Position numbers and translations under genes: made by a program. DNA of 44,952 nucleotides, taken from the NCBI GenBank assembly GCA_004297845.1, contig SCSP01000278.1, positions 1-44,952 of the forward strand, given 5' to 3'. The notes under the pieces are model-generated. The model did not search any database and had not been told where the DNA came from. It saw only the letters and a program-made list of their open reading frames with translations. How positions within the stretch are numbered: position 1 is the stretch's first letter; the number at the start of each line of letters is the position of its first letter. This document shows positions 3,438 through 43,848 of the stretch, in pieces. Source of the stretch: Bacteroidota bacterium (GTDB lineage: Bacteria; Bacteroidota; Bacteroidia; Palsa-948).

Positions 3438-4847
3438 TCAATCGATCACTAATTTCCCGCTGGCAGAAATTTTTCCACTATGTTTTTCAACGATACTGTA
3501 TTGGTAAATGCCGGCAGGCAGTTGGTTGCGTTGGATGACAATGCTGCCTGTAGTTATATTTTCTTTTTTCATTACATGGTTGCCAAGTATGTCGTAGATT
3601 AACAATTCATGTGTTAAGCCATTCGGATTGTCGAAGCGGAATATCGCAAGATCAGAGAAAGGGTTGGGGAATACGGAATTAGACTTGATGGTGGGTTCAT
3701 CGGCCGTTCCCACGGGCAAATAAACAACTGCGATATCATCCACATAAAGTACACTTCCTGAACCGAAATAACTTGTGCTGTCAGCGAAATTGCCGGACCC
3801 AAAAACAATATTCAATGTATCAGTATAGGGAAAATTATTATACGTGAACGGAAGTTCAAAATAGGTATAGGTATTTGTGGGAGGCAGTTTTTTAAGACTG
3901 CTGTCCAGCCTTACCCCGTTGTTAAAGGTTTCTGCAGCAGCGATGGCGGTATCAAGTCCCACTGCGGTGTATTTGTACCAGCCGGTGATCTTGGATGGAT
4001 TTGCATTCACCTTCATTCCGCCTTCTGGACCATCATTTCCAAAATATCCATTGGTGACCAGACCCAGCGTGTCGCCACCAAATGCTTCGATGGTTTCGAT
4101 ACGTATGGCGTATGTACCACTATGGCTGCTGGTGCTTTTGGTTGCGGAAAGAGTAGTGGTAGCTGCAAAATTTATGGTGGTCCAGTTGTCAGGTTCTTCC
4201 GATGTTTTAGTAACCCATGTTTCAAAACTTGGGTTGGGAAATCCCTGGTTGGTTCCTTTGAAAGTAATACTGTCGATGACAAGAGTGCTACCCGGCATTT
4301 TGACCCCGTCAAGGCTGGAACTGGTAATGATGACAATGATTGAATCCGGGGCAGGAGAAACAGGAAGATTGGAAGGCATGGAGAAACGCTTGTAGGCGCT
4401 CTGTGTGCCAACGAAATATTTTGATGCAATGGTCATGATCGCACCGCTCTTTTTAAATCCAACGATCATGTAAGCGGTATCATTTGTTAAAATATTATAT
4501 CTCACGTAACTTGTAATTGAATCCGGTTGCCCTGTGTAAGGAATTCCGCCTTTCACACCTCCCTGTCCGGGTATGCCTATGAACAATCCTCCCATGATGG
4601 TATCAGTGCCGCTGGAAACAGTGGTAAGCTGTGCCGCGTAGGTGCTATGAAAGCTACCCGTGGATTTTATCACATTCCCCATGGGTAGAAATGAAAAGGT
4701 CCATTGATTGCTGCTCATGTAAGGAGTGGGTTCATCATAAAATGTTTGTACGCTCCATGTTTCAAAACCCGGGTTGGCAGGCTGCTGTGCATCCGCAATA
4801 GATGCGAGAAACAGAATATTGATCGAAAGAGTAATGATTTTCTTCAT
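3438..4847 (-). CDS. Secreted protein with T9SS type A C-terminal sorting domain
   Basis: Signal peptide, two related modules each opening with NP[GS]FETW, and a C-terminal VFPNPFSD...IYQYSI...GKLVID segment typical of Por/T9SS CTDs. Confidence 0.8.
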   Translation of the reverse strand: MKKIITLSINILFLASIADAQQPANPGFETWSVQTFYDEPTPYMSSNQWTFSFLPMGNVIKSTGSFHSTYAAQLTTVSSGTDTIMGGLFIGIPGQGGVKGGIPYTGQPDSITSYVRYNILTNDTAYMIVGFKKSGAIMTIASKYFVGTQSAYKRFSMPSNLPVSPAPDSIIVIITSSSLDGVKMPGSTLVIDSITFKGTNQGFPNPSFETWVTKTSEEPDNWTTINFAATTTLSATKSTSSHSGTYAIRIETIEAFGGDTLGLVTNGYFGNDGPEGGMKVNANPSKITGWYKYTAVGLDTAIAAAETFNNGVRLDSSLKKLPPTNTYTYFELPFTYNNFPYTDTLNIVFGSGNFADSTSYFGSGSVLYVDDIAVVYLPVGTADEPTIKSNSVFPNPFSDLAIFRFDNPNGLTHELLIYDILGNHVMKKENITTGSIVIQRNQLPAGIYQYSIVEKHSGKISASGKLVID

Positions 4848-4977: not shown

Positions 4978-7900
4978 ATGAAAAAAGCGATATACATTTT
5001 TCTTGTAGGTTTTTTACTATTTTTCTTTATTCAATTTTCACATTCCCAGATAGTTATAAACGAAGTCTCTACTGCCAACGATGCGGTAATCGCTGATGAG
5101 GAGGGTGATTTTGAAGACTGGATAGAGCTGTACAATCCCACCAACGCCACCATTTCATTAAATAAATACACCTTCCTTTATGAGGTTCCAAATGAAATTC
5201 CCGTAAGCTGGACCTTTCCCGAGATATTCATCAAACCCAAACAACACTTGCTGATATTTGCTTCTAAAAAGGACAGGAAAGAAGTGATTGACCATTGGGA
5301 AGTGCCCATTTTTCCTGACAGTATTTGGAGATATAAAGTTAATACCACCTCCGGACCTGCGGCAAACTGGTACCAGCCAACTTATTCCGATGCTTCCTGG
5401 CTACAGGGAGTGGGAGGATTTGGGTATGGTGATGGAGACGATCAGACCAATACAGGAACAACATCCTCGGTTTACCTGAGAAAACTTTTTTCAGTAACCG
5501 ATACCGGTAAATGTCCATTGGGTGTTTTAAAGGTTGATTATGACGATGCATTTGTTGCTTACTTGAATGGTGTGGAAATTGCGCGTTCCAATATTGGCGT
5601 TTACGGAGATCACCCTGCCTACACTGTTTCTGCGATCGGAGAACATGAAGCAAAAGTGTATCAGGATACCGTTCCTCCTGTTGAAGGATGGGAATATTAT
5701 TTCATACCGAAACAGGTGATTCGTTCTGCGCTGAAACCGGGAAACAATGTTTTGTCAATTCAGGCGCATAACCATGCTGCCGGATTTGATGATTTATCCG
5801 TACGCCCGTATTTTATTCTTGGAGTAACAGATACAACCGCTATGTATCCTTCTATCCCGTTTGAAGTCTACATGCATACGAATTTTTCACTCTCCAACGC
5901 CAAAGGTTTTGTTATTTCCCTGAAAGATTCTTTAGGCAACCTCAGCGACACGCACACCTTTCAACCCCAAAACATGCAGGTAAATAATTCCAAAGGCAGA
6001 AATCCGGATGGAGGAAACAATTGGTGTTATTTCCATGTGCCGACTCCTGATGACACAAACGACATCACGCAATGTTTTGGAAATTATGCTCAACAGCCTT
6101 CTTTCAATCTGCCTTCCGGATTTTATTCTGGAACGCAAACGCTGAGTGTCACCGTTCCTCCCGGTGCGTATGTTTCTTATACGCGAAACGGAGACACGCC
6201 CGATGGGTCTGATCCGGTGTACACGGCCCCCATTACGATTGATTCAACACAGGTAATCCGTGCACGCGCTTTTTCAAGTGCAGGCAGCGATTTGCCAAGT
6301 AAAACCATCACCAGCACTTATTTCATCAACGAAAATATTTCGGCACAGGTCATTTCACTTTGTACGGACTCCGTTAATCTTTGGGACTGGCAGACAGGAA
6401 TTTATGTAAAAGGACCTGGTGCAGATTCAATAATCCCTTACCGGAATGCAAACTTCTGGATGGATTGGAAGCGTCAGGCGAACATCGAATTTTTTGACTT
6501 GAACGATACCCTGGGATTTGAACAGGAATGCGCCATTGCCATTCATGGAAATTACACCCGCTCTTTCCCCCAGAGAAGTTTCCGCGTTTATGCCAACGAT
6601 GATTATGGTGACCCCTATATGAATTACCAGATTTTCCAGGATAAAAATATTAATAAGTTCAGAAGTTTTAACATTCGCAATGCAGGCTTTGACTGGAACA
6701 CCTGCCATATGCGCGACCGCCTCATGCACAAGATGGCGCAGAATACGAACATTGATGTTATGGACGGAGAGCCGGTGGTGCTTTTCCTGAACGGGCAATA
6801 CTGGGGATTGTACGAAATGCGGGAACGGCAGGACGAATATTATCTGGCTGAAAATCACAATGTGGATCCCGAAAATGTGGATCTGCTGCGGTTTGAAGGG
6901 GATATTGTTAAAGGAACAAACACGGCATTTTTTAACATGGCGCAGTATATTGGCTCGAATAACATGGCCATACAGGCAAATTATGATTCAGCCCTTAAAC
7001 TGATTGATCTGCCGAACTATTGCGATTACTTTATCGCTGAAATCTATTATGACAATTATGACTGGATATATTTTTTTGGCGGAAGCAATAACATCAAGAT
7101 ATGGAGAACCATCACCCCCCCGGGTAAATGGCGTTATATCTTATGGGATGTGGATTTGGGATTACGGGCTAATGCCCCCAATCCGATCTGGGGTATCGGC
7201 ACTTATTTCACCTGTGAGGACAATAATCTTGGAAACCTTATTGCTTCATCTTCCACCGGAAGCGTCCATGCGTCTATGTTCGGAAGTTTGCTTGCCAACA
7301 ACGCTTTTCGAAATTATTTCATTACCCGCTACGCTGATCTGATGAACACCACCTTTCACCCAGTTAATTTCAGGAAAAAAATATATCAAATGCGCGATGA
7401 GATGCTGCCTGATATGGCAAGGCAGTTTGCCAAATGGGCGGGGCCTGTACATATATTTCCTCCTTTGCCGGCATACGCGGGAAGAGCAACTGATATCCCC
7501 TCATGGATGGCTGAGGTGGATACGATGGCTGACTACACCGGTTGCCGCCCGTATCACGTCCGGGATTCGCTTCAGGCAGAATTTTCTTTGGTGAAGCAAG
7601 TGGATATTACACTGGATGTTTCTCCTGCAGGAGCAGGAAATATTAAATTGAATACAATCAATAAACTTGATTCACTCCCCTGGACAGGCGTTTATTTTGA
7701 CGGGGTGCCGGTTACGATGACTGCAACTGCAAATACAGGCTATGTATTCTCACACTGGCAATCACCCATTTTGATTCCCACTCCTGTCAATACAACTTCC
7801 GTTACGCTCAATGTGACCACCAATGAACTTTTTACCGCCTATTTTACTCCTATACCACCAAACGTCAATTCAATTGAATCGAGTTTGATGTTAAGCGTTT

Positions 7901-8154
7901 TTCCAAATCCATTCAGCGGTGATTTTTCGTTAAGCTATACCCTTCTTGCCGGTGCCAAGGTTTCCGTAAAACTGTACGATAGGATAGGGCAGGAGGTAGC
8001 CGGTCTTCTTTCTTCCGAAGGTAAAGTAAAACCAGGCACATACAATCTGAAAGTTGATTCCCGAAATTATTCTCTTACAAGCGGGGTTTATTTCATTCAA
8101 TTCACGGCAGGGGAATTTTCAAAGATGATTAAGCTGGTGAAAACCAACGATTGA
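4978..8154 (+). CDS. CotH kinase-family protein (lamin-tail domain + chitobiase-C-like domain + CotH core + T9SS CTD), paralog 1
   Basis: Signal peptide. LTD-like VINEVSTAND...DWIELYNPT. CotH-like FNIRNAGFDWNTCHMRDRL, NGQYWGLYEMRERQDEYY and KWRYILWDVDLG. C-terminal VFPNPFSG...GVYFIQF...KLVK sorting domain. Confidence 0.88.
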   Translation: MKKAIYIFLVGFLLFFFIQFSHSQIVINEVSTANDAVIADEEGDFEDWIELYNPTNATISLNKYTFLYEVPNEIPVSWTFPEIFIKPKQHLLIFASKKDRKEVIDHWEVPIFPDSIWRYKVNTTSGPAANWYQPTYSDASWLQGVGGFGYGDGDDQTNTGTTSSVYLRKLFSVTDTGKCPLGVLKVDYDDAFVAYLNGVEIARSNIGVYGDHPAYTVSAIGEHEAKVYQDTVPPVEGWEYYFIPKQVIRSALKPGNNVLSIQAHNHAAGFDDLSVRPYFILGVTDTTAMYPSIPFEVYMHTNFSLSNAKGFVISLKDSLGNLSDTHTFQPQNMQVNNSKGRNPDGGNNWCYFHVPTPDDTNDITQCFGNYAQQPSFNLPSGFYSGTQTLSVTVPPGAYVSYTRNGDTPDGSDPVYTAPITIDSTQVIRARAFSSAGSDLPSKTITSTYFINENISAQVISLCTDSVNLWDWQTGIYVKGPGADSIIPYRNANFWMDWKRQANIEFFDLNDTLGFEQECAIAIHGNYTRSFPQRSFRVYANDDYGDPYMNYQIFQDKNINKFRSFNIRNAGFDWNTCHMRDRLMHKMAQNTNIDVMDGEPVVLFLNGQYWGLYEMRERQDEYYLAENHNVDPENVDLLRFEGDIVKGTNTAFFNMAQYIGSNNMAIQANYDSALKLIDLPNYCDYFIAEIYYDNYDWIYFFGGSNNIKIWRTITPPGKWRYILWDVDLGLRANAPNPIWGIGTYFTCEDNNLGNLIASSSTGSVHASMFGSLLANNAFRNYFITRYADLMNTTFHPVNFRKKIYQMRDEMLPDMARQFAKWAGPVHIFPPLPAYAGRATDIPSWMAEVDTMADYTGCRPYHVRDSLQAEFSLVKQVDITLDVSPAGAGNIKLNTINKLDSLPWTGVYFDGVPVTMTATANTGYVFSHWQSPILIPTPVNTTSVTLNVTTNELFTAYFTPIPPNVNSIESSLMLSVFPNPFSGDFSLSYTLLAGAKVSVKLYDRIGQEVAGLLSSEGKVKPGTYNLKVDSRNYSLTSGVYFIQFTAGEFSKMIKLVKTND

Positions 8155-8179
8155 TATAAAAAAAATAAAAGCAGAATTG

Positions 8180-8187
8180 TAACTTTG
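8180..8187 (+). promoter_or_regulatory. -7 box TAACTTTG upstream of CotH paralog 2
   Basis: TAACTTTG matches TAnnTTTG, 41 nt before the ATG at 8229. It lies inside the leader segment shared with paralog 1. Confidence 0.3.
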
Positions 8188-8228
8188 TCATCCTATTCCT
8201 CGTCTTAAGGTAACATTAAAGGAAGCGA

Positions 8229-11200
8229 ATGAATTTTATACGCCTTTCTCTTATAGGTTTTCTATTATCCGATGTTTGTCAACTATTATATTCTCAGGTA
8301 GTTATAAACGAGCTGTCTTCAGCCAACGATGCTGTTGTTGCCGATGAGGACGGAGATTATGAAGATTGGATAGAGCTTTATAATCCTACTAATGTTACCA
8401 TCTCCTTGAATAAATATTCTTTTTTATACGAGGTGCCCAACGAGGCTCCGGTAAGTTGGACTTTTCCTAAGATTTTTATCAAACCCAGGCAACATCTGCT
8501 GATATTTGCTTCCAAAAAGAATCGGAAAGAGGCGATTGATCACTGGGAAGTACCCATTTTTGCGGACAGTACATGGAGATATAAAGTGAATACTGCCTCC
8601 GGCCCGGCTGCAAACTGGTATCAGCCAACTTATTCTGACATATCCTGGCTTCAGGGCAAGGGTGGTTTCGGATATGCAGATGGAGATGACCAGACCAATA
8701 CCGGTGCTGCTTACTCTGTTTTCTTACGGAAAAATTTTAGTGTCACCGATACCAGCAAATATTCTTTGGGTGTGCTGATGATTGACTATGACGATGCGTT
8801 TGTTGCATTCCTGAACGGGGTGGAGGTGGCCCGAAGCAATATCGGTGCGTTCGGTGATCATCCTGTTTACAACGTATCAGCTTATGATGAGCACGAAGCC
8901 AAACTTTATCAGGGAGGCAGCCAGGAGTTTTTTTTTGTTCAGCTTAAAAATAGTTTAAAGCCAGGCAATAATGTTTTCAGTATTCAAGCACATAACTATT
9001 CGGGCGGAATGGATGACCTTACCGTTATGCCATGGCTGATATTGGGAAGCAAGGACACAGCACAGCAATTTATTTCTTTCCCGGCTGAATTCCGTATGCA
9101 TACCAATTTTTCACTTTCCTCCACCGAAGGATTCAAACTTACCTTGAAAGATTCTCTCGGTGCTATTAAAGATTCTCTCACGCTTGGACCAAAAAATATG
9201 CAGGCGAATAATTCCAAAGGCAGAAATCCGGACGGAAGTGTTAGCTGGTGTTTGTTCTGGGGGCCATCGCCTGCCGATACGAACGATGTTACCCAGTGCT
9301 TTGGAACGTATTCTGCCAAACCGGCATTTAACCTTCCTGCCGGATTTTACACAGGAGTTCAGACACTTTCTATAACGGTTCCGGCAGGAACAGCAGTTTT
9401 CTATACTCGTAATGGAAATAATCCTATGTGGACTGATTCCATGTACACCGGGTCAATTATCATTGATTCAACTCAGGTGATTCGTGCGCGCGCATTTGCG
9501 TTATCCGGTACCGATTTGCCGAGCAGTACAATCACGAACAGCTATTTCATCAACGAAAATAGTACGTTGCCCGTAATTTCTTTGTGTACGGATTCAGTAA
9601 ATCTTTGGGACTGGAACACCGGCATATATGTAATGGGACCCAATGCCGATACGGTAAATCTTCCCAACCAGAACGCTAATTTTTGGATGCCATGGAAAAA
9701 ACAGGCGCATACCGAATTTTTTACGAAGAATAAGCTGCTTGGATTTGAACAAGATTGCGCCACCGAAATCCACGGTAACTTTTCCCGCGCATGGCCCCAG
9801 AAAAGTTTCCGCATCATGGCGAACGATGATTACCAGGATCCCTACATCAACTACAAATTATTCCCGGAAAAAAATATAACCAAATTCAAATCCTTCAACA
9901 TCCGCAATGCAGGCATTGACTGGAATACCTGCCATTTCCGCGACAGGCTCATGCACGATATTGTGCAGAAAAAAACAGATATTGACATCATGGACGGGGA
10001 AGCCTGCCTGCTCTTCCTCAACGGGCAGTACTGGGGGGTATATGAAATGCGCGAGCGTCAGGACGAAAATTATATAGCAGGCAATCACAATGTTAGTCCG
10101 GACAGTATTGACCTTCTGCGCTTTGAAGGAGATATCCTGGAAGGCTCCAACGCAGCCTTTTATGGCATGGTTGGATTTCTCGCCAATAACAATATGGCTA
10201 TTCAGGCGAATTATGATTCAGCCCAAAAGCTTATTGATATTGAAAATTATTCTGATTATTTTATTACCGAAACCTATTACAACAACTGGGATTGGTTTTG
10301 GACCGATCTTGCGAACAACACCCAGGGAACAAACAACATCAAATTTTGGAGAGGAACTAACCCTGTAACCAAATGGCGTTACGTGCTTTGGGATACTGAT
10401 CTGGGCATGGCGCTGATGGACGGTGCCGCTGTCAATTGCCCGCAGAACCTTTTTGGTACTATTACAGACCCTGTCATCACTTCTCCGAGTTTGCATATTG
10501 TGATGCTGAAAGCAATGCTGCAAAATACTTCTTTCAAAAATTATTTTGTGAACCGTTATTGCGACCTCATGAATACTGTTTTTCACCCCGACAGCGTCCT
10601 CGCCAAGGTCAACAATGTGCGTACTGAACTTCAGCCTGAAATGGCAAGGCAGTTTGCAAGGTGGAACGGTGGGCCGATCACCATTTTCGGAGCATGGGAT
10701 GTGGGACGCTCAATTGACATCCCCACCTGGCTGAATGAAATTGATACGCTCGAAGAATTTGTGAATTGCCGTCCGTACAATGTACGGGATTCTTTACAGG
10801 CAGAATTTGCATTAACCAAACAGGTGGATGTGACCCTGGATGTTTCACCTGCCGGTGCCGGAAAGATACATTTGAATACGATCGACCCCGTTCCTTATCC
10901 CTGGACAGGTATTTACATGGATGGAGTACCAATTACCATGACCGCCATTCCAAATACAGGATATGTGTTTTCGCACTGGCAGGCACCCATTTTGATCCCA
11001 ACTCCGGTCAGTACGGCTTCGGTTTCGCTTAATGTTACTGTGAATGAAACTTTCACAGCGTATTTTACCCCCATCCCTCCGGGTGTCGATCCGCTTGAAG
11101 CAAGTCTGGGATTGGGTGTTTATCCGAATCCTTTCACCGATGATTTTTCGGTGACCTATACCTTGCACCAGGATGAGAAAATCTCGGTCAGACTTTTTGA

Positions 11201-11375
11201 TATTCTGGGGCAGGAAGTGATCCAGTTGGTTGCTGCAGATCAGCCTCAAAATGCAGGTGCGCATGAACTGAAAGTAAATTCTGCGGATTATGAACTCTCA
11301 GGTGGTATTTATTTTCTTAAATTCACAACCGAAGGTTTTTCCAAGATGATCAGGTTGGTGAAAACCGGTAATTAA
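8229..11375 (+). CDS. CotH kinase-family protein, paralog 2 (same domain order, T9SS CTD)
   Basis: Collinear with 4978-8154 over its full length. It carries the same LTD, NGQYWGVYEMRERQDENY and KWRYVLWDTDLG motifs and a C-terminal VYPNPFTD...GIYFLKF...RLVK. Confidence 0.88.
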   Translation: MNFIRLSLIGFLLSDVCQLLYSQVVINELSSANDAVVADEDGDYEDWIELYNPTNVTISLNKYSFLYEVPNEAPVSWTFPKIFIKPRQHLLIFASKKNRKEAIDHWEVPIFADSTWRYKVNTASGPAANWYQPTYSDISWLQGKGGFGYADGDDQTNTGAAYSVFLRKNFSVTDTSKYSLGVLMIDYDDAFVAFLNGVEVARSNIGAFGDHPVYNVSAYDEHEAKLYQGGSQEFFFVQLKNSLKPGNNVFSIQAHNYSGGMDDLTVMPWLILGSKDTAQQFISFPAEFRMHTNFSLSSTEGFKLTLKDSLGAIKDSLTLGPKNMQANNSKGRNPDGSVSWCLFWGPSPADTNDVTQCFGTYSAKPAFNLPAGFYTGVQTLSITVPAGTAVFYTRNGNNPMWTDSMYTGSIIIDSTQVIRARAFALSGTDLPSSTITNSYFINENSTLPVISLCTDSVNLWDWNTGIYVMGPNADTVNLPNQNANFWMPWKKQAHTEFFTKNKLLGFEQDCATEIHGNFSRAWPQKSFRIMANDDYQDPYINYKLFPEKNITKFKSFNIRNAGIDWNTCHFRDRLMHDIVQKKTDIDIMDGEACLLFLNGQYWGVYEMRERQDENYIAGNHNVSPDSIDLLRFEGDILEGSNAAFYGMVGFLANNNMAIQANYDSAQKLIDIENYSDYFITETYYNNWDWFWTDLANNTQGTNNIKFWRGTNPVTKWRYVLWDTDLGMALMDGAAVNCPQNLFGTITDPVITSPSLHIVMLKAMLQNTSFKNYFVNRYCDLMNTVFHPDSVLAKVNNVRTELQPEMARQFARWNGGPITIFGAWDVGRSIDIPTWLNEIDTLEEFVNCRPYNVRDSLQAEFALTKQVDVTLDVSPAGAGKIHLNTIDPVPYPWTGIYMDGVPITMTAIPNTGYVFSHWQAPILIPTPVSTASVSLNVTVNETFTAYFTPIPPGVDPLEASLGLGVYPNPFTDDFSVTYTLHQDEKISVRLFDILGQEVIQLVAADQPQNAGAHELKVNSADYELSGGIYFLKFTTEGFSKMIRLVKTGN

Positions 11376-11431
11376 TGCCTGATTTCAGAATTGCTACAGG
11401 ATTTAACATTTACTTTGTAATAAATTAATGT

Positions 11432-13087
11432 ATGAAGGTTCTTTCCGCAATTATTCTTTCTGTTGTGATTCCGGGCGTTGTGTCTGCTCAATGGAACCCG
11501 AGTTCTTCCGTCAACACATCCGTTTGCGTTCAACCGTATGACCAGCAGGATGCACGTATTGTAACCGACAGTAAAGGTGGGGCGATAATCACCTGGCTCG
11601 ATTTCAGAAATGATGCTGCACAGATCCTGGGCGATGTATTTGTACAGCGGATCGACAAGAACGGTATTAATAAGTGGACAGTAAACGGTGTTGCTGCCTG
11701 TGCAGATGCAACCAATCAAACGGCTCCTTCTGTGGTGGAGGATGGAACCGGTGGGGCTATCATTGCCTGGAACGACTGGAGAAACGGCACCCGCGATATT
11801 TATGCTCAGAAAATTGATTCAACAGGAACGGTAAAATGGGCGGTAAACGGAGTGGCCGTTGTTGCAAAGGCAAGCCATCAGCAGGATGCTAAACTTATTT
11901 CTGACGGAGCAGGGGGTGCTATCGTGGTGTGGCAGGATTCTGCCAACGGACTTTGGGATATTTATGCGCAGCGTATCAGTAGTACTGGTTCTTTGAACTG
12001 GACTGCTGCCGGAGTTCCCATTTGCAGTGCGGCCGATGCCCAGATAAATCCCCGCATTGAAACGGATGGAGCAGGAGGTGCTGTGATCGTATGGCAGGAC
12101 AAACGCGGTGGAATTGATTATGATATTTATGCCCAGCATGTGGACGCAACCGGGGCTACCACCTGGACAGCGAACGGAGTGGCGGTCTGCACAAGTATCA
12201 GCACTCAGTCAAATCCTAAAATTGAGCCGGACGGTGCCGGAGGGATGATCATTGCCTGGCAGGATAAAAGGAACGGAGTGGATTATAATGTTTATACACA
12301 ACGTCTGAGTGCTGCCGGTATTGTGCTATGGTCACCCAACGGGGTGGCGGTTTGCACAGCGGCTGCTTCTCAAAGTGCGGTAGACATGACCTCGGAAGGA
12401 ATTGCGGGTGCCATCATTGTGTGGAAAGACCTTCGAAGCGGCAACTATGATATTTATGCCCAGCGGGTAGATCTTACCGGAAATCTGCAATGGGCTGTGA
12501 ACGGGGTGGCCATTTCTACCGGCCCTGGGGCTCAGTTGAATCCAAATGCCGTGGGTGACGGTGCGGGGGGTGCTATTATTGTCTGGCAGGATTCCAGTGC
12601 GGGTTCTTCAGATATTAAAAGTCAGCGTTTAAGCAGTTTGGGAGTAGTACAATGGACGGTCGGAGGGGTTGGCGTAGGTACAGCAGCCGATAATCAGACC
12701 AGTCCTAAGAATGTTTCGGACGGATCAGGGGGGAGTATCTATGCATGGCAGGATAAAAGGAATGCCGCTGATTTTGATATCTATGCCCATCATCTTTATT
12801 CAAACGGATCGACCAGTGGGATCTTTGAGCATAATAATTATATCAGAAGTTCTGTGTTTCCAAATCCATTTAGTGAGTCGGCCGAAATACAGGTATCAGG
12901 TATAGAGTATCAGGCAAAGGGCATCCGTTTGTTTGATGTTTTGGGACAAGAGATCAGCCCGGATGTTACCAAAAACGACAAAGGATTCTTGATCAAGAGA
13001 AACAATCTTTCAATCGGCATTTATTTTTACGAGATCAAAACTTCAGAAAATATCTTTTCAACCGGAAAGTTCATTATTACGGATTAA
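11432..13087 (+). CDS. Secreted repeat protein (about eight ~54-aa repeats, propeller-like) with T9SS CTD
   Basis: Signal peptide, then repeated units GGAI[IV]xWxDxRxGxxDIYAQRxxxxGxxxWxxNGVxVC, then VFPNPFSE...GIYFYEI...GKFIITD. Confidence 0.8.
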   Translation: MKVLSAIILSVVIPGVVSAQWNPSSSVNTSVCVQPYDQQDARIVTDSKGGAIITWLDFRNDAAQILGDVFVQRIDKNGINKWTVNGVAACADATNQTAPSVVEDGTGGAIIAWNDWRNGTRDIYAQKIDSTGTVKWAVNGVAVVAKASHQQDAKLISDGAGGAIVVWQDSANGLWDIYAQRISSTGSLNWTAAGVPICSAADAQINPRIETDGAGGAVIVWQDKRGGIDYDIYAQHVDATGATTWTANGVAVCTSISTQSNPKIEPDGAGGMIIAWQDKRNGVDYNVYTQRLSAAGIVLWSPNGVAVCTAAASQSAVDMTSEGIAGAIIVWKDLRSGNYDIYAQRVDLTGNLQWAVNGVAISTGPGAQLNPNAVGDGAGGAIIVWQDSSAGSSDIKSQRLSSLGVVQWTVGGVGVGTAADNQTSPKNVSDGSGGSIYAWQDKRNAADFDIYAHHLYSNGSTSGIFEHNNYIRSSVFPNPFSESAEIQVSGIEYQAKGIRLFDVLGQEISPDVTKNDKGFLIKRNNLSIGIYFYEIKTSENIFSTGKFIITD

Positions 13088-13098
13088 CACCATGAAAT

Positions 13099-13512
13099 AT
13101 GAAAAGTAGTAAGTCAATTCTTGCCTTTTGTATACTGTGTACTGTTTACTGCGTACTACTCGTCTCCTGCAAAAAAGGCCCGGGAGAGGGCGGCAGAGCC
13201 AGCATCATCGGGAAGGTGTACACGGTGAATTACAATTCCACCATGACGGTGGCTGTTGATTCCGGTTACCTGGGAGGGCAGAAGGTGAATATTATTTACG
13301 GAGATGAGATTGCAATAGGCAAGAGCGAAGACACCAACAATGAAGGTGCTTACGAGTTCTCCTACCTCCGTAAAGGTAAATACAAAATATATCTGTACAC
13401 AAAAACAGCACAGAATATGCTGGATTCTGCTTTGGTGCAGGAAGGAGAAATAACTGAAAAGAAACAAGTGCTGGAATTGCCGGATTTTAGAATTAAAACC
13501 AACAAGAACTGA
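13099..13512 (+). CDS. Small lipoprotein, carboxypeptidase-regulatory-like beta-sandwich
   Basis: Signal peptide ending in LLVSC (lipobox). The pattern IIGKV...GAYEFSYLRKGKYKIYLY resembles CarboxypepD_reg-type domains. Confidence 0.6.
   Translation: MKSSKSILAFCILCTVYCVLLVSCKKGPGEGGRASIIGKVYTVNYNSTMTVAVDSGYLGGQKVNIIYGDEIAIGKSEDTNNEGAYEFSYLRKGKYKIYLYTKTAQNMLDSALVQEGEITEKKQVLELPDFRIKTNKN
13131..13158 (+). repeat. Degenerate heptamer tract (NNTACTG x4) within signal-peptide coding sequence
   Basis: Reads tatactg tgtactg tttactg cgtacta. It shares the core word with the perfect tract at 15624-15651. Confidence 0.7.
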
Positions 13513-13514
13513 TT

Positions 13515-14099
13515 ATGTTCCGAATTTGTTTTTTGGGATTTTTACTGATTGTTTTTTGTGCGTCTGCACAGAGCAAAAAAGAAAAGAAAGCCATTAAAAC
13601 GTATGCAGTAAAATCCATTACCGAGAATGTTACTGAATCAGTAAGCGGGAAAATGGTTACACGTAAAGATTCTTATACTGCCTTTGATAAAAATGCAAAC
13701 ATCACTTCGAACGAAGAGTATAGAAAGGACGGTACATTAAAACACAAGGAAACAGCTAAATACGATTCCCAGGGAAATAAACTGGAAGAAACAGTCTGGG
13801 ATGCCGCAGAGATTACTCCCAATCCGGAAAAATATGTAAAACAGGTTTCAAAATTTGATTCAGAAGACAGCAAGACTGAACAGCAGGAATTTGATGCAAG
13901 CGGAAAGCTTTTAAGTAAAACAAAATATTCTTACAATAACAACGGAGATAAGACCCTGGAAGAAGTTTTTGACGTCTCCGGAAAACTTATCCGCAAGTTC
14001 AAGTACTCTTACAATTCCAAGGGTCTTAAAATTGATAAGCTGGAATACGATGGATCCAATGTGCTGATCTCTTCCCGCAGATACCAATACGAATTCTGA
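13515..14099 (+). CDS. Secreted repeat protein (YD/MORN-variant-like short repeats)
   Basis: Signal peptide (FCASAQ) and repeated K[YF]DSQGNK / FDASGKL / FDVSGKL / KYSYNxxG units. Its stop overlaps the next start (TGATG). Confidence 0.55.
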   Translation: MFRICFLGFLLIVFCASAQSKKEKKAIKTYAVKSITENVTESVSGKMVTRKDSYTAFDKNANITSNEEYRKDGTLKHKETAKYDSQGNKLEETVWDAAEITPNPEKYVKQVSKFDSEDSKTEQQEFDASGKLLSKTKYSYNNNGDKTLEEVFDVSGKLIRKFKYSYNSKGLKIDKLEYDGSNVLISSRRYQYEF

Positions 14100-14890
14100 T
14101 GCCGGCACTCAGCAGTGTTATAGCAAAGTTTGAGCCCATCACCCTCTCTGAAATGGAGAATGTGAAGTTGATGGAACGGACCGATTCTAAATATGTTTTT
14201 TCCCGTGAGCAGCTTCCTGAAATCCTTGATGCGATGAACTCTTCGTACCGCCTTCTGGAGATCAACAATATGCGCCAACATCGGTACGAGTCCTTGTATT
14301 ACGACACGAAAGATTTCCAACTGTTTAAAAGGCACCATCTCGGAAGGTTGAATCGTTGGAAGTTGCGTTTTAGAAAGTATGTTGATTCCGGAGGACTAAC
14401 CTTTTTCGAGATCAAATTTAAAAACAGGAAGGAAACAACAATTAAGAACCGGGTTAAGATGAAAGAGGTCGGTAATACAATCGAAGGAAAGGCGATGGAT
14501 TTTATGAAAGAGATAACTCCCTTTGCCCCGGAGAACTTTGAACCTAAAATGTGGGTGAACTATTCGCGCATGACCTTTGTAAATAAATTTATGAAGGAAA
14601 GACTTACTATTGATACTGACCTTCATTTTAAAAAGGCTTTGGCGGACGGCAAGGTCCTTGAAGCCCGGTTTCCCGGCATGGTAATCGCAGAGGCGAAGCG
14701 GGGAAAAGCATCTTCGGTTTCAGAGTTCATCCGTATGGTGCGCCTTAATGGCATCCGTGAATCGGGAATCAGTAAATATTGCTTCGGCATTTACAACCTT
14801 TTCGACTCAGTAAAGAAGAATAACTTTAAACCCCGGGTGCGTTTCATTCATAAAATGGCGGGAATGCCTTTTTATCCAACAGGAACCTAA
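14099..14890 (+). CDS. VTC-domain (polyphosphate polymerase / CYTH-like tunnel) protein
   Basis: 263 aa with no signal peptide. Basic beta-strand motifs typical of bacterial VTC-domain proteins: ERTDSKYVF, RWKLRFRKY, FFEIKFKNRKETTIKNR and VIAEAKRG. Confidence 0.78.
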   Translation: MPALSSVIAKFEPITLSEMENVKLMERTDSKYVFSREQLPEILDAMNSSYRLLEINNMRQHRYESLYYDTKDFQLFKRHHLGRLNRWKLRFRKYVDSGGLTFFEIKFKNRKETTIKNRVKMKEVGNTIEGKAMDFMKEITPFAPENFEPKMWVNYSRMTFVNKFMKERLTIDTDLHFKKALADGKVLEARFPGMVIAEAKRGKASSVSEFIRMVRLNGIRESGISKYCFGIYNLFDSVKKNNFKPRVRFIHKMAGMPFYPTGT

Positions 14891-14907
14891 ATCTAAACTA
14901 CTGCAAT

Positions 14908-15546
14908 ATGTATCTACTACAAGAAACAACAGAATCGCTTTCAACCGGGATGGCATTATTTGACAAGCTCTCTCTCAAATTTTTTATCCGGCTTGGGATC
15001 GACCTGTCCTCGGTTTTTGTGCTGATCCGGCTTATTTATTATCCGAACTACCGCACCAAGGAATTTTTCTTCACTTTTTTCATTTTCAACCTTGTCATAT
15101 TTCTCATTACCTACATGATGAATAAGGTGGAAATGTCTATGGGAGCTGCATTCGGTCTCTTTGCCGTATTCAGCATCATGCGTTACCGCTCGGAGGATAT
15201 TTCAATCAAGGACCTCACTTATCTTTTTCTTGTAATTGCCATCGGCCTGATCACCGCAGTTTCTAAAGGGGGCTGGGACGAATTGTCGCTGATTAATTTG
15301 ATTATCATTGTGGTCACCCTGCTGCTTGAAACAAATTTGCTGATGAAAAGGGAATTGGGGAAATCAGTTCTATATGAGAATATTGAAATGATCAAGCCCG
15401 AGAATCACAAAAAATTACTGGAAGACCTGAGAACCAGAACCGGTCTCAACATTCACCGTTTCAGCATTACCAAAGTGGATTTTCTCCGAGATATGGCTAC
15501 CATAAGGGTTTATTACTACGATACAAGAAGTAAAATATCTATCTAA
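14908..15546 (+). CDS. DUF4956-like integral membrane protein
   Basis: 212 aa with about four hydrophobic helices. The GLFAVFSIMRYRSEDISIKDLTYLF core resembles DUF4956, plus a soluble C-terminal tail. The usual partner of bacterial VTC-domain genes. Confidence 0.68.
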   Translation: MYLLQETTESLSTGMALFDKLSLKFFIRLGIDLSSVFVLIRLIYYPNYRTKEFFFTFFIFNLVIFLITYMMNKVEMSMGAAFGLFAVFSIMRYRSEDISIKDLTYLFLVIAIGLITAVSKGGWDELSLINLIIIVVTLLLETNLLMKRELGKSVLYENIEMIKPENHKKLLEDLRTRTGLNIHRFSITKVDFLRDMATIRVYYYDTRSKISI

Positions 15547-15549
15547 GGG

Positions 15550-16284
15550 ATGAAGTCGCCAGTTCAAAGCCCCAAGTCACAAGCCCCAAGCTCCATGCAC
15601 AAAGGATTTTTACTGGCTGTTTTTGTCTACTGTCTACTGTCTACTGTCTACTCCCATTCTCAAGACTACCCCGATGCCGGATCATGGAACACTTTTAATT
15701 TGGAATATTCTCTCCATGCGAAATTCACAGGACTGTTTACTCAGGAATGCAGGATCAGGGAGAATTTTTCCCGCCTCAATCTATTCTATACAAATTTGGG
15801 AATCGAATACAAGGTCGCCAAGAATTTAAAAGCCGCTCTGATTTATCGTTGGATAGATAAATATGAGGACGACAACTCATTCAGTTTTCGTCATCGGATC
15901 ATGCTTGACCTTATGCTGAAGCATAAATTCGGAAAGTTTGTTACAGCATACAGGAACCGTACCCAGGTGGAAGAACGGGATATTTATTCCAGTGATGACG
16001 GACGTGTTCCCGAGTGGTATTCAAGAAATAAATTTGGAGTAAAATGTGATATGGAAAAAAGGTACACTCCTTTTGCTTCCGTTGAATTTCGTTATCAGTT
16101 TCATGATCCGCGTAACATTGACAGCGATAAAACCTGGCACCGCACCCGCTCAGTTGCTGGAGTGGAATATAAGATCAATAACAAAAATATATTTGCCGCT
16201 TATTATCTTGTTCAGATAGAGTACAATGTAGCTGCCCCACAGGATCAATACATTGTAGGTTTGGAATACACACTATCTCTATAA
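15550..16284 (+). CDS. Outer-membrane beta-barrel-like protein (DUF2490-like)
   Basis: Signal peptide followed by alternating aromatic/polar strands ending in YTLSL. The true start may be Met16 at 15595, because the first 15 codons lie in low-complexity repeat DNA. Confidence 0.55.
   Translation: MKSPVQSPKSQAPSSMHKGFLLAVFVYCLLSTVYSHSQDYPDAGSWNTFNLEYSLHAKFTGLFTQECRIRENFSRLNLFYTNLGIEYKVAKNLKAALIYRWIDKYEDDNSFSFRHRIMLDLMLKHKFGKFVTAYRNRTQVEERDIYSSDDGRVPEWYSRNKFGVKCDMEKRYTPFASVEFRYQFHDPRNIDSDKTWHRTRSVAGVEYKINNKNIFAAYYLVQIEYNVAAPQDQYIVGLEYTLSL
15624..15651 (+). repeat. Perfect tandem heptamer (TGTCTAC)x4
   Basis: Four exact 7-bp units with degenerate units on both sides. It encodes part of the signal peptide (VYCLLSTVYS). 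Confidence 0.9.
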
Positions 16285-19545: not shown

Positions 19546-20824
19546 GTATCTGTAACGAAATAAGGTTTACAAAATTGGCTTTATTGTATAGTTCCATTCT
19601 CCATGAAATTCACTTTTTATAATATTAATTTTTCTTAGTTTTTCATCTGAGACCTTTACTCCTTTCTCGTACACTCCTTTATCCAATTTTGATTTTACTT
19701 TTAATCCTTTACTTGTTTTAGTTGCTGCAATTAAATCCACTACCAATTGAATATTGGTTAAGGGTTTCGCCCTCCAATTCATTGTAATGTGTGAAAATAA
19801 TCGATGCTCTATTTTATTCCATTTGCTTGTACCCGGTGGAAAATGACTTACTGTTATTTCTTTACCTATTTCATCTGCTAATACCTGTAACTCTATTTTC
19901 CACAATCTACTCCTCGAACTGTTACTTCCTCCGCCATCCGCTGTAATAAATAGTCGTTTCGATTCGCTGAATTTTTCTTTCCCCATTTCTTCCCACCAAT
20001 TTCTTATTGTTGATACCGCAAAACTGGCTGTATCATGGCTGATGCCAACACTTACCCAGCCTTCATTATTAGCCACATCATAAACACCGTAAGGAATTGC
20101 TTTGCCTAGATTTTTATCTATAAAGTCGTACACCTTTACCGTTGTTGGCTTTCCTTTTGAATGCCATTCTTTGCCCGCGTTCTTGAAGTTTCCAATCAAT
20201 TCTTTTTTCTTGCAATCAACCGATATTACAGGGTCGCTATTACCTAAAAAACCTTTTGCTAATTCATTAATGTAATTAAATTGTGTGTCTCTATCAATGT
20301 GCTTGCCGCCTTCATGTGTTTTCCGATTCCCTTGTAAGCTATAGCCACTATTTTTTAAAATAACACCTGCTAATTTGTGACTTATGTTGTATCCCATATT
20401 TTTGGCCGCATCAGCTATATTGCGCAAACTTTTATTTGTCCAAAGCAACGGCTTCATTGGGTCGCCCATTGTATGTGGACTAACTATTTCTTCTATTACT
20501 TTTTCTAAATTGGTATTTTTTTCCGTTTCTTTCTTTCGTCCGCCCCCTTCTTTTCTTATCCGTTCATTGGTTGTATCTTTTTTTACAGGAACTGAAGCCA
20601 ACTCTCTAATCCCAATATTTAAAGTCACCCTTGAAACTCCCGAGAGTTTCGACACTTTACTTAGTCCACCCCTTCCCATACTTTCTGCATCTGCAGCCAA
20701 TACTATTCTGGTTTGTCTCTCATTTAAATGGGGAAGTATTTTTTTATACTTCTTTCGGATAAGGATATCTGTTTGCATACATTTTGTGTTTTCACAAATG
20801 TACATATTATTTCGTTACAGATAC
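19546..20824 (-). mobile_element. Intact IS element, ISAzo13 family
   Basis: Perfect 18-bp terminal inverted repeats GTATCTGTAACGAAATAA at 19546-19563 and 20807-20824. TAA flanks both ends (19543-19545 and 20825-20827). A single transposase ORF fills the element. Confidence 0.85.
19567..20805 (-). CDS. ISAzo13-family DDE transposase
   Basis: 412 aa with PVISVDCKKKELIGNFKNAGKEW, PYGVYDVANNEGWVSVGISHDTASFAV, ITADGGGSNSSRSRLWK, HFPPGTSKWNKIEHRLFSHI and FHGEWNYTIKP. Confidence 0.9.
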   Translation of the reverse strand: MYICENTKCMQTDILIRKKYKKILPHLNERQTRIVLAADAESMGRGGLSKVSKLSGVSRVTLNIGIRELASVPVKKDTTNERIRKEGGGRKKETEKNTNLEKVIEEIVSPHTMGDPMKPLLWTNKSLRNIADAAKNMGYNISHKLAGVILKNSGYSLQGNRKTHEGGKHIDRDTQFNYINELAKGFLGNSDPVISVDCKKKELIGNFKNAGKEWHSKGKPTTVKVYDFIDKNLGKAIPYGVYDVANNEGWVSVGISHDTASFAVSTIRNWWEEMGKEKFSESKRLFITADGGGSNSSRSRLWKIELQVLADEIGKEITVSHFPPGTSKWNKIEHRLFSHITMNWRAKPLTNIQLVVDLIAATKTSKGLKVKSKLDKGVYEKGVKVSDEKLRKINIIKSEFHGEWNYTIKPIL

Positions 20825-21177
20825 TAAGATTCAATTTTTCCTGATTTTAAACAAAGCGTGGACTGCCACTCGTGTGACAACAGCCCGCTCCGTGAGACCA
20901 ACACGCTGGTAGCCGGACATATCCCCGACCCTACAACCAACGGGCCCGACAGTCTCCCTTTAACCACTTTGTCACGGTTTTTGAGATCACACACTGCTTG
21001 CACATTGCCGTGCTCGTGTCTGCGCGCGGCAAAGATCAAGCGTGAGGCTCCATCAAAAAACCGCGCCCAAAAATCACCATGCTATCCGTTCTTAGCTATA
21101 TAATCCGTAATCATTTGTTTTCAACAATTAAAATTTTTGAAGGGATATTGTATAAATTAGCCCAAAATTCAATAATA

Positions 21178-22869
21178 ATGATAAAAGAACCTGTAAAAAA
21201 GAAAAAGAGGTACAAGGTTGCCTCAAAACCTTCGGTTGTAAAAGAATGTGAAGAAAACTATTTCTTAACCCCACCGAAGCATTTAAAAAGAGAAGAAACA
21301 TTCCTATCCATTAAGGAGGCCAGTGAATTTGCCAGTAATTATCTAAAAAGAAATGTTACCACCTCAAATATTTCCTATCTCATTCAATATGGCAGAGTAA
21401 AAAAAATTGGCGACAATGGCTCTACACTCATTGATAAAAATGAATTACTCGAATATTATCAATCTTATAATGGCACAAGAGCGGTAGAATGGAAAGAAAA
21501 ATTAGGGAAGGATTTAAATTGGACTTTATCCTTTGACGAATATAAAGAAGCCGAAACTACCAAACATGTTCACCGACTCCACCCATATAAAGGAAAATTT
21601 ATTCCGCAACTAGTTGAATACTTTTTAGATGCCAAGACCGATAAATTCAAAAAGGAAGTTTATTTCAAAGAAGGTGAAATAGTTCTTGACCCATTTTGCG
21701 GAAGCGGAACAACTCTTGTTCAGGCAAGTGAATTAGGGATGCACGCAATCGGCATAGATGTTTCCACGTTCAATGCAATGATCAGCAATGTTAAGATTGG
21801 GAAATATGACATTGAAGACATAAAAAAGGAAGCCGACAAAATCTCATCCGCGCTCAATCAGTTTATTACCAATTCCAAAACAGTTGCATTTGAAACCCGA
21901 CTGCTTGAAGAGTTAAATAAATTCAATAATAAATATTTTCCTGTTCCTGAATATAAATACCAGTTAAAACAAGGTAAAATAAACGAAGATAAATTCGGAG
22001 CGGAAAAAGAAAAAGAATTCCTTCCAACATTTGACAAATTAGTTAAAGAATATAAAATTGAATTAAGGCAAAAGAAGTCTGATACATTTCTTGATAAATG
22101 GTATTTACAACATGTGCGAACAGAAATTGACTTTGTATACGATCTGATACGAAAAATAAAAAATGAAAACACGAAAAAGATTTTAAGCGTTGTACTCAGC
22201 CGAACAATCCGCTCCTGCCGTGCAACTACTCATGCAGATTTAGCAACCCTTTTCGAACCAATAACTTCCACATATTATTGCCAAAAACATGGCAAAATGT
22301 GCAAGCCATTATTTTCCATTCTTAAATGGTGGGACAGTTACAGCAAAGACACTCAGAAAAGATTAAAAGAATATAACGTATTGCGAAAAGAAACCCAGCA
22401 GGTTTGCCTTACAGGTGATTCGCGCTCGATAGACATTTTCAATGCATTGAAAGAGCAAAATCCTTCTTTCGCCCGGCTTGCAAAAGGATTAAAGATTAAA
22501 GGAATTTTTTCATCGCCACCCTATGTAGGCGTAATCGATTACCATGAACAACATGCTTACGCGTATGATTTGTTTGCCTTTGAAAGAAAAGATAGTCTTG
22601 AAATTGGTCCGCTTATTAAAGGTCAGGGGCGGGAAGCAAAAGAATCATACACAAAAGGAATTTCAGATGTATTAAACAATTGCAAAAAATTCTTTGTTCA
22701 AGATTACGATGTTTTTCTTGTCGCAAACGACAAATACAATATGTATCCAACCATTGCCGAACTTGCCGGCATGAAAATTGTTAATCAATATAAACGACCT
22801 GTATTAAACCGCACGGAGAAAGATAAAGGAGCCTATTCAGAAATCATTTTTCATTTGAAAGGGAAATAA
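21178..22869 (+). CDS. Type II DNA amino-methyltransferase (motif I upstream of SPPY)
   Basis: AdoMet motif LDPFCGSGTTLVQA and catalytic motif IFSSPPYVG about 280 aa downstream. The likely start is MIKEP at 21178; the track ORF begins at 21079. Confidence 0.82.
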   Translation: MIKEPVKKKKRYKVASKPSVVKECEENYFLTPPKHLKREETFLSIKEASEFASNYLKRNVTTSNISYLIQYGRVKKIGDNGSTLIDKNELLEYYQSYNGTRAVEWKEKLGKDLNWTLSFDEYKEAETTKHVHRLHPYKGKFIPQLVEYFLDAKTDKFKKEVYFKEGEIVLDPFCGSGTTLVQASELGMHAIGIDVSTFNAMISNVKIGKYDIEDIKKEADKISSALNQFITNSKTVAFETRLLEELNKFNNKYFPVPEYKYQLKQGKINEDKFGAEKEKEFLPTFDKLVKEYKIELRQKKSDTFLDKWYLQHVRTEIDFVYDLIRKIKNENTKKILSVVLSRTIRSCRATTHADLATLFEPITSTYYCQKHGKMCKPLFSILKWWDSYSKDTQKRLKEYNVLRKETQQVCLTGDSRSIDIFNALKEQNPSFARLAKGLKIKGIFSSPPYVGVIDYHEQHAYAYDLFAFERKDSLEIGPLIKGQGREAKESYTKGISDVLNNCKKFFVQDYDVFLVANDKYNMYPTIAELAGMKIVNQYKRPVLNRTEKDKGAYSEIIFHLKGK

Positions 22870-22871
22870 CG

Positions 22872-23061
22872 ATGAAAGAAATTACACTTTACGAAATCAC
22901 AACTGAGGATGTGATAACTGTTTCAGAAGAAATTAATATCCCCTTTACTAAAAAGGATTTACAATTTATTCAAGATAAAATCGGAGATTTTTTTAGGAGA
23001 CAAGTGGCAAGATGCTGTTGAATATGCTCTAGTAGAGTTAAATAATAACAAGAAATTATAA
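22872..23061 (+). pseudogene. Small ORF between methyltransferase and endonuclease, split at a T7 run
   Basis: Frame 0 (22872-23021) encodes 49 aa. After the T7 run at 22988-22994 the +1 frame continues as LGDKWQDAVEYALVELNNNKKL. That frame ends in a TAATG overlap with the next gene's ATG at 23061. Confidence 0.4.
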
Positions 23062-39425: not shown

Positions 39426-39476
39426 CAGAGTGAGGCGAATTTACGAATAAGTATAGTTCCTTATCTTTACATCTCC

Positions 39477-42520: not shown

Positions 42521-42542
42521 CAACTGGTTGATAACATACGCT

Positions 42543-43841: not shown

Positions 43842-43848
43842 TAAGGGT

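Follow-up and report, generated by a model that had tools for sequence, protein, structure and literature searches.

Polyphosphate (polyP) in bacteria is the textbook chemistry of PPK1 and PPK2. In eukaryotes the polymer is made by the VTC complex, the polymerase-translocase of the yeast vacuole and the acidocalcisome, in which a catalytic domain facing the cytoplasm is coupled to a small membrane protein of several helices and the product is delivered to the organelle lumen. Synthesis of polyP depends on nine residues of the Vtc4 subunit that bind the Mn-triphosphate (K200, R264, R266, K281, Y359, R361, E426, S457 and K458), and K458 is the sole catalytic residue to be replaced, by Ile or Leu, in the inactive Vtc2 and Vtc3 proteins (10.1101/2023.01.27.525886). 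The locus described here lies at positions 4978-16284 of contig SCSP01000278.1 (assembly GCA_004297845.1; Bacteroidota, lineage Palsa-948), the whole 44,952-nucleotide stretch analyzed being referred to as the window. It encodes a VTC-domain protein next to a membrane protein of the DUF4956 family, three further envelope proteins, and two members of the CotH kinase family equipped for export by a T9SS (type IX secretion system). The reading best supported by the analysis, put forward tentatively, is that these genes specify a system for synthesis of polyP and its export across the envelope.

Two other described systems bear on this locus. In Streptococci, Clostridia and Bifidobacteria, a trio made up of cotH, a "poly-phosphate polymerase" (PPP) gene and a DUF4956 gene is contiguous with the pelDEADAFG genes (10.1101/768473), the full accessory set reading cotH-PPP-DUF4956(-DUF4832) (10.1101/768473; PMC7112168). 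The same trio is visible in the NELoc-2 locus of C. perfringens (PMC2879425) and corresponds to SIR_1592-1594 of S. intermedius (PMC12345266). When S. intermedius is grown in artificial sputum, deletion of either the DUF4956-like gene or cotH lowers aggregation by more than 50%, and the two deletions shift the level of Pel in opposite directions (PMC12345266). The authors of that study stated that the trio could not be found outside Pel loci, and termed the DUF4956 protein MgtC-like with an ACT domain (PMC12345266). The other system is the spore-coat kinase CotH of Bacillus (structures 5JD9 and 5JDA), which works in the cytoplasm of the mother cell with ATP at hand; in B. subtilis CotH, mutation of the catalytic D228 or of the metal-binding D251 inactivates the kinase.

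Eight open reading frames (ORFs), designated A to H, fill the interval 4978-16284, all on the plus strand. The junctions between them measure, in order, 74, 56, 11, 2, -1, 17 and 3 nt, the overlap being a TGATG stop/start sequence shared by E and F at 14097-14101. This arrangement was recomputed and agrees exactly with an earlier annotation made by a model from the letters and ORF translations alone (the original prediction), every domain call of which also held in Pfam and NCBIfam profile searches; nothing that sequence can check overturned it. The junctions from C to H are all 17 nt or shorter, and, judged by spacing, C to H, and possibly A to H, are packed in the manner of an operon. No terminator was found between the C-to-H genes in a scan for sigma-70-type promoters and terminators that did no better than chance and carries no information where Bacteroidota are concerned; an Rfam scan of the window gave zero matches. 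A TAnnTTTG sequence, resembling the Bacteroidetes-type -7 motif, occurs at position 8180 in the A-B spacer. The same gene order was found again in dozens of independent Bacteroidota contigs, and the arrangement is therefore non-random.

The strongest evidence concerns F (14099..14890, + strand; 263 amino acids), recognized by Pfam, AlphaFold2 (AF2) and Foldseek as a VTC-type triphosphate-tunnel protein. The match to the Pfam VTC family (PF09359) has an E value of 7.7e-31 (107.9 bits; cut-off 23). No hydrophobic segment was detected in F, in agreement with the earlier suggestion that the protein lacks a signal peptide and is cytoplasmic. The structure predicted for 14099-14890 is confident (predicted local distance difference test, pLDDT, 90.3) and has the Vtc-type tunnel fold. 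In a Foldseek search with this model, the top 13 PDB matches were all yeast Vtc4, Vtc3 or Vtc2 (E between 3e-12 and 3.5e-9), the best at 3e-12 being 8i6v, 3g3r, 3g3q and 7ytj; other triphosphate-tunnel (TTM) enzymes, ygiF and CYTH proteins among them, matched at 2e-7 or weaker. A single-sequence phmmer search of the PDB with F yielded no match and a first VTC profile (A1) reached only Vtc2 (E=0.055). A profile built from 74 diverse representatives of an exhaustive search (A7) aligned with Vtc4 (3g3q) at E=2.7e-5, and the hidden Markov model (HMM) alignment was used to map the catalytic residues. All nine positions are identical in F and Vtc4: K31 (within an RxxTKY motif), R90 and R92 (RLRWY), K106 (FVERK), Y155 and R157 (YNR), E198 (LEVK), and S225 and K226 (FSKF). 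Within the 74-sequence alignment, eight of the catalytic positions are invariant or at least 90% conserved; the ninth, that of Y155, falls below 90% and has Phe in the majority. Because the equivalent of K458 is present (K226), the signature is of the polymerase type and not of the Vtc2/3 type, and F is a predicted Vtc4-type polymerase. The family of bacterial VTC-domain proteins is large (7,580 clusters at 50% identity, E<=1e-3). The N-terminal extensions of F homologues are hydrophilic, and neither VTC-DUF4956 fusions nor membrane-anchored VTC homologues were found among the top representatives.

The gene immediately downstream, G (14908..15546, + strand; 212 amino acids; Pfam and AF2), encodes an inner-membrane protein of the DUF4956 family (PF16316, E=2.7e-52; 177.4 bits against a cut-off of 30.6). 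The original prediction had described a DUF4956-like protein with about four transmembrane helices; the family assignment stood and the count did not, since the AF2 model has five predicted helices where hydropathy gives four. The C-terminus forms a beta-alpha-beta-beta (ACT/ferredoxin-like) domain, modeled at a pLDDT of about 80 in a structure whose overall value is 59, and weakly resembling ACT folds in Foldseek. The MgtC/SapB membership suggested for the DUF4956 protein of streptococci found no support at the sequence level, Pfam giving no MgtC signal in 36 DUF4956 proteins at E<=10.

Compared with the eukaryotic complex, F thus has the same tunnel fold and identical residues at the nine catalytic positions, and it is genetically linked to G much as the VTC catalytic domain is tied to its membrane partner. 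There are also differences. VTC has an SPX domain, through which inositol pyrophosphates exert control, a fused three-helix domain of the DUF202 type, and the Vtc1 subunit, none of which is found here; the membrane partner of F is separately encoded and belongs to an unrelated family (five helices and an ACT-like domain) in place of VTC's own transmembrane domains. F, whose activity is predicted, would serve the periplasm and the cell surface instead of an organelle lumen.

Conservation of the locus was assessed by scanning one genome per species, which gave 289 relatives of F; the best 80 loci, mostly from metagenome-assembled genomes, were examined with 10-kb flanks, using HMMs made from the window proteins, with 30 proteins cross-checked against Pfam. 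A DUF4956 gene adjoins the VTC gene in 76 of these 80 loci; D and E are each present in 68 and DUF2490, the family of H, in 62, many of the misses being contig ends. The conserved core is thus a five-gene cassette with the canonical order D-E-VTC-DUF4956-DUF2490. The original prediction had given D and E a minor role, an assessment that does not survive these counts. It had also named conservation of the linkage as a check. The linkage is conserved for VTC and DUF4956, together with D, E and DUF2490, and in part for CotH proteins with a T9SS C-terminal sorting domain (CTD). Of the 58 cassette loci that extend 3 kb or more upstream, 35 have such a CotH gene there in co-directional orientation, and 43 have a co-directional CTD protein of any kind; on the downstream side, CotH occurs in 1 of the 53 informative loci. 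With the rebuilt CotH HMM, CotH was detected in 39 loci, and 47 of 48 CotH ORFs carry the CTD. Neighbors that had looked "LTD-only" were identified as CotH by Pfam.

Several departures from the canonical order were seen. Six loci (L025, L026, L052, L061, L066 and L069) have D-E-DUF4956-DUF2490 on one strand with VTC convergent directly downstream, and none of the six has CotH upstream. The D gene is tandemly duplicated in eight loci (L012, L036, L038, L039, L056, L059, L063 and L064), and an additional D copy lies between DUF4956 and DUF2490 in L002 (11452-11892).

The three proteins that accompany the F-G pair in Bacteroidota are all predicted to reside in the envelope. D (13099..13512, + strand; 137 amino acids) is a lipoprotein with the lipobox LVSC24, Lys at positions +1 and +2, and a single beta-sandwich of the prealbumin/CarboxypepD_reg-like type; C24 and a GEGG motif are invariant in its homologues, about half of which give sub-threshold Pfam matches to beta-sandwich families. 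E (13515..14099, + strand; 194 amino acids) has a signal peptide and is predicted to be periplasmic. It combines a lysine-rich N-terminal patch (KKEKKAIK), in which K24, K25, K28 and K33 are invariant among homologues, with Y-x-Y-N/D-x-x-G hairpin repeats; it has no Pfam or PDB match, and scans of its homologues gave only sub-threshold hints of RHS/MORN repeats. H (15550..16284, + strand; 244 amino acids; Pfam) is a putative outer-membrane beta-barrel of the DUF2490 family (PF10677, E=3.6e-23; 82.7 bits against a cut-off of 29.8), with a likely signal peptide starting at M16 and roughly 10-14 amphipathic segments as counted by a crude method. The conserved residues on the non-lipid face of the barrel are mostly Arg/Lys, with 9 basic and 3 acidic positions. 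DUF2490 is classified as a putative porin family (TCDB 1.B.81), function not assigned (PMC4827864), and in B. thetaiotaomicron a DUF4956 and a DUF2490 protein are encoded side by side (BT3498-99; PMC10434189). Profile searches of the PDB with D, E and H returned nothing significant. The span from cytoplasm through inner and outer membrane to cell surface that had been proposed is upheld by the predicted compartments, to which the periplasm can be added.

The layout of the cassette recalls the synthase-dependent exporters of exopolysaccharides (PelC/PelB for Pel, AlgK/AlgE for alginate and PgaA/B for PNAG), in which an inner-membrane synthase whose catalytic domain is cytoplasmic, an outer-membrane lipoprotein, a periplasmic part and an outer-membrane barrel are encoded in one operon. 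The likeness is one of analogy only, as no homology to D, E or H was detected in the PDB profile searches; furthermore, the polymer would here be inorganic and the barrel H is much smaller (about 210 residues) than those of the exporters.

Upstream of the cassette lie the genes for three proteins with T9SS sorting signals. A (4978..8154, + strand; 1058 amino acids) and B (8229..11375, + strand; 1048 amino acids), both identified with Pfam and NCBIfam, are CotH paralogues of the same architecture, 63% identical over their full length. In A, a signal peptide is followed by a lamin-tail domain (LTD), a CHB_HEX_C immunoglobulin (Ig)-like domain, the CotH kinase domain (residues 520-846, nt 6535-7515), an InlB-B-repeat-like segment (Flg_new_2) and Por_Secre_tail, the type-A sorting domain, at residues 974-1055. 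The CotH family (PF08757) was matched at E=2.1e-36 by A and 1.1e-34 by B (126.5 and 120.8 bits; cut-off 23.8). Phmmer with the single sequence of A found no match in the PDB; a profile of 27 CotH domains that includes both window copies (A2) matched the B. cereus CotH structure 5jd9 at E=4e-29. The profile columns D191 and W219-D220, which are invariant, B included, correspond to D695 (NYD) and D724 (WD) of A and align with the NFD and WD sequences of B. cereus CotH; these stand 23 residues apart, the same spacing as between D228 and D251 of B. subtilis. Both catalytic aspartates are thus kept in A and B, whose kinase activity is predicted on these grounds. The kinase-core strings that had been pointed out before are present in both copies: NGQYWGLYEMRERQDE at A605 and NGQYWGVYEMRERQDE at B598, and WDVDLG at A723 and WDTDLG at B721. 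In contrast to the Bacillus enzyme, with which they share the kinase-like fold family, A and B are multidomain surface cargo proteins of about 1050 residues in a non-sporulating diderm.

C (11432..13087, + strand; 551 amino acids) is a beta-propeller repeat protein in NCBIfam searches (TIGR04275 repeat, E=1.1e-24; TIGR04183, E=4.6e-10). The claim that A, B and C are type-A T9SS cargo was confirmed by TIGR04183, above cut-off in all three, and PF18962. N-terminal hydrophobic segments of the signal type occur in A, B, C and E. The organism does have a T9SS, since the window also encodes, at 42528-44823, a protein with a type-B (CHU_C) sorting domain and then PorP/SprF, the usual cargo/partner pair for type-B substrates. 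A further T9SS cargo protein is encoded divergently from A (3438-4847, - strand), combining a PCMD "putative carbohydrate metabolism domain" with a type-A CTD. No report of CotH as T9SS cargo was found in the literature searched.

The position of C directly before D is a feature of the window's own clade; orthologues occupy it in L001-L003, L005, L006, L008, L009, L011, L020, L079 and L080. For the counts, the propeller HMM was separated from the CTD signal. T9SS cargo found upstream in other loci includes arylsulfotransferase (ASST)-like propellers, proteins resembling carbohydrate-binding modules (CBM) and Reg_prop propellers. Many loci encode, just before CotH, an ASST-like propeller that bears a T9SS CTD (L027:3988-5676, L074:383-3947, L075:3080-4783), usually followed by a 335-residue CBM20/X25-like CTD protein. 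In L075 a T9SS-tagged calcineurin-like metallophosphoesterase (7865-8998) directly precedes D. Ppn2, an endopolyphosphatase of the yeast vacuole, is a member of this superfamily, and the L075 protein may be a surface polyP-processing enzyme.

The F-G pair extends well beyond Bacteroidota. VTC-DUF4956 adjacency spans Bacteroidota, Verrucomicrobia, Deinococcota, Alphaproteobacteria and Actinomycetota, and the two genes are adjacent in seven of seven plasmid loci. On contigs from Verrucomicrobia, and on others binned as "Methanoperedens", the pair occurs by itself. A Deinococcus taeanensis plasmid has, in a row and without Pel, a CotH gene with a signal peptide, a gene for a polyP-polymerase-domain protein, and DUF4956. 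Phosphate-related genes are found beside the pair elsewhere: an inorganic phosphate (PiT) transporter and a phytase-like esterase on a Nitratireductor plasmid (DUF4956, VTC, PiT, esterase), a phytase-like esterase next to DUF4956 and VTC in Aminobacter and Shinella, and a HAD acid phosphatase and phnDCE beside VTC-DUF4956 in Deinococcus QL22. Such neighbors would fit a role in polyphosphate metabolism. D, E and H were not detected in the loci examined from Verrucomicrobia, "Methanoperedens", Deinococcus, Alphaproteobacteria and Actinobacteria, and the accessory genes described for Gram-positive Pel loci do not include them (10.1101/768473; PMC12345266). The cassette can be viewed as the version found in the diderm Bacteroidota of a widespread bacterial module with F plus G as its invariant core.

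Other genes were noted in these neighborhoods. An S8 serine peptidase and a pair of genes for an extracytoplasmic-function (ECF) sigma factor and its anti-sigma factor adjoin the DUF4956-VTC-phytase-like cluster on the Nitratireductor and Aminobacter plasmids (L082, L083), where they may point to regulation of the envelope-stress type. In a verrucomicrobial locus (L055:5883-8489) the pair is followed by a gene for an 868-residue fusion of a major facilitator superfamily (MFS) transporter with a spermine/spermidine synthase; polyamines are classical counter-ions of polyP. The pairs in Candidatus Methanoperedens bins (L013, L024, L057) are about 50% identical to the Bacteroidota protein and reflect either real archaeal carriage or mis-binning; the neighbors in L013 are Fe-S, MoaA-like and AsnC-type.

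Linkage of CotH, VTC and DUF4956 was already known in Gram-positive bacteria, and the window resembles the Pel accessory set in that the same three families are adjacent, CotH being secreted, VTC cytoplasmic and DUF4956 membrane-bound. It differs in that there is no contiguity with pelDEADAFG and no DUF4832 (no pel, other exopolysaccharide or DUF4832 gene was found among the window ORFs scanned), in that CotH travels by the T9SS and carries LTD and Ig-like modules, and in the addition of D, E and DUF2490. Thirty-five Bacteroidota loci and one Deinococcus plasmid have the trio without Pel; it is therefore not confined to Pel loci. New here are the diderm version, its three added envelope proteins, the T9SS-targeted CotH and the lack of a Pel locus.

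Taken together, these features suggest the following pathway. F would polymerize the gamma-phosphate of ATP into polyP inside its basic tunnel in the cytoplasm and would dock onto an oligomer of G, through which the nascent chain would be threaded across the inner membrane, an arrangement analogous to Vtc4 sitting atop the Vtc1/3/4 membrane pore. The outer-membrane-anchored D, the lysine-rich periplasmic E and the Arg/Lys-lined H might then convey the polymer, or hold it, between the inner membrane and the cell exterior. The argument for placing D, E and H in one pathway with F and G is comparative: among the phyla examined they were found only in Bacteroidota, where their order is fixed and the junctions are 17 nt or less. 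The proteins displayed through the T9SS from the upstream genes could act on, or together with, the polymer or surface substrates associated with it: here the two CotH kinases and the propeller, elsewhere also the ASST-like propellers and the metallophosphoesterase. That secreted CotH proteins have been recruited beside the pair repeatedly, in four phyla or more, argues for a functional tie. In its fullest version, the proposal has the surface-anchored CotH proteins draw phosphoryl groups from the exported polymer, or link it to proteins or glycans of the cell surface; this version is unlikely as it stands. PolyP as scaffold or substrate for CotH is an inference, and as phosphodonor it is speculation.

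A number of observations weigh against synthesis coupled to export. F consists of the VTC domain alone, without the SPX and membrane domains of Vtc4, and lacking SPX and the three-helix (DUF202) domain it belongs to the VTC-domain family but falls outside the eukaryotic VTC complex. The literature searched yielded no study on the function of any VTC-domain protein from bacteria. For G, the Foldseek search returned nothing below E=0.06, and given this and the low-confidence model, a channel function has no structural support. A preprint describes a buried charge network (two cations, two anions and a Tyr) in 238 DUF2490 models, for which reason the conserved charges of H may form a plug in the barrel and not the lining of a pore. 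In S. intermedius no aggregation or Pel phenotype was reported for deletion of the VTC-domain gene (PMC12345266), a result that argues against a strictly linear pathway from polymerase to kinase. Finally, CotH is missing upstream in 23 of the 58 informative loci (40%), and the closest relatives of the window (L001-L003) have C-D-E-F-G-H-mgtE with no CotH within 9 kb. CotH is therefore a frequent accessory and not a core member of the cassette, and the A/B pair is a lineage-specific tandem duplication.

The alternative that fares best, somewhat improbable in our estimate, is that the locus is an island for phosphate economy from which nothing is exported. F and G would make or handle polyP, or short polyphosphates, as a cell-associated store of phosphorus and cations, located in the cytoplasm or the periplasm; D, E and H would serve the uptake or retention of phosphate species; and the upstream T9SS proteins would be co-regulated scavenging or surface enzymes acting on other substrates, linked to the cassette through shared regulation such as the response to phosphate limitation. 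The phosphate transporter, esterases, phnDCE and acid phosphatase found beside the pair in other phyla agree with such a role, as do the metallophosphoesterase adjoining D in L075 and the variable make-up of the upstream T9SS cargo. A small anion-selective barrel could, moreover, import phosphate or pyrophosphate in the way of OprP and OprO. Difficulties are that D, E and H, found here only in Bacteroidota, keep a fixed order relative to F and G, pointing to a single physical route, and that secreted CotH has been recruited in at least four phyla. In addition, enzymes of the Vtc4 type are known only in association with a pore that clears their product from the cytosol (10.1101/2023.01.27.525886).

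It is less probable still that the module works without polyP, in regulation or surface assembly. F would then be a tunnel triphosphatase or nucleotide processor and G an MgtC-like regulator, the two tuning assembly of an exopolysaccharide or adhesin, with phosphorylation by CotH, supplied with ATP from another source, as the effector. Triphosphatases and cyclases do occur in the TTM superfamily, and ygiF and CYTH proteins are among the structural matches of F; however, the full set of Vtc4 residues is present in F, the K458 equivalent included, and the Vtc proteins are by far its nearest structures. Likewise, the S. intermedius phenotypes, where changes in Pel level and aggregation are reported for deletion of DUF4956 and CotH but not of VTC, and the MgtC-like character and ACT domain ascribed to the DUF4956 protein (PMC12345266), together with the weakly ACT-like C-terminus of G, speak for such a module; set against them are the complete lack of MgtC signal in the DUF4956 proteins scanned and the failure to find an exopolysaccharide locus in the window.

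The idea that the CotH genes are mere neighbors, T9SS cargo having accumulated beside an envelope cassette to which it is functionally unconnected, could draw on the loci that lack CotH (the closest relatives included), on the possible promoter motif of B and on the many unrelated CTD proteins upstream, but is very improbable in view of the strong upstream bias of CotH, which is always co-directional, and of the same pairing in Firmicutes, Actinobacteria and Deinococcota, where, to our knowledge, the T9SS does not exist.

The remainder of the window can be described briefly. The mgtE gene starts 83 nt past H, as originally noted; a functional tie to it, raised at the same time with coincidence as the other possibility, was rejected, as mgtE is directly downstream in the four closest loci only and within 10 kb in 7 of the 80. 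Being restricted to the closest relatives, its adjacency is best read as inherited synteny. A segment of low G+C content (0.35-0.37 against about 0.43) at 19567-23837 encodes an ISAZ013-type DDE transposase (19567-20805, - strand), an N6/N4 DNA methylase (21079-22869) and a restriction endonuclease of the TdeIII type (23061-23837). The segment probably represents a mobile island for restriction and modification, inserted between a 2-hydroxyacid dehydrogenase gene and a rodA-PBP2-mreC-mreB cluster. At 39369-41105, 23 kb from the cassette, a gene for a type I phosphodiesterase/nucleotide pyrophosphatase (NPP family, E=9.8e-49), a further extracytoplasmic phosphoester enzyme in the window, is followed by an MFS transporter gene.

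The locus is real and conserved, and the proposed interpretation appears plausible and better grounded than before. It bears on how polyP reaches the bacterial surface or the medium, and on how secreted kinases of the CotH type obtain a phosphodonor. The occurrence of the trio without Pel corrects the published impression that it is restricted to Pel loci, and annotations as vague as "polyphosphate polymerase domain-containing protein", "DUF4956" and "DUF2490" can now be replaced by a concrete hypothesis. If true, the proposal would add a third, Vtc4-type route to polyP in bacteria, one built for secretion, and would provide an answer to the question of how extracellular kinases work without ATP, with relevance to the biofilm matrix, to metal and phosphate cycling and to interactions with the host.

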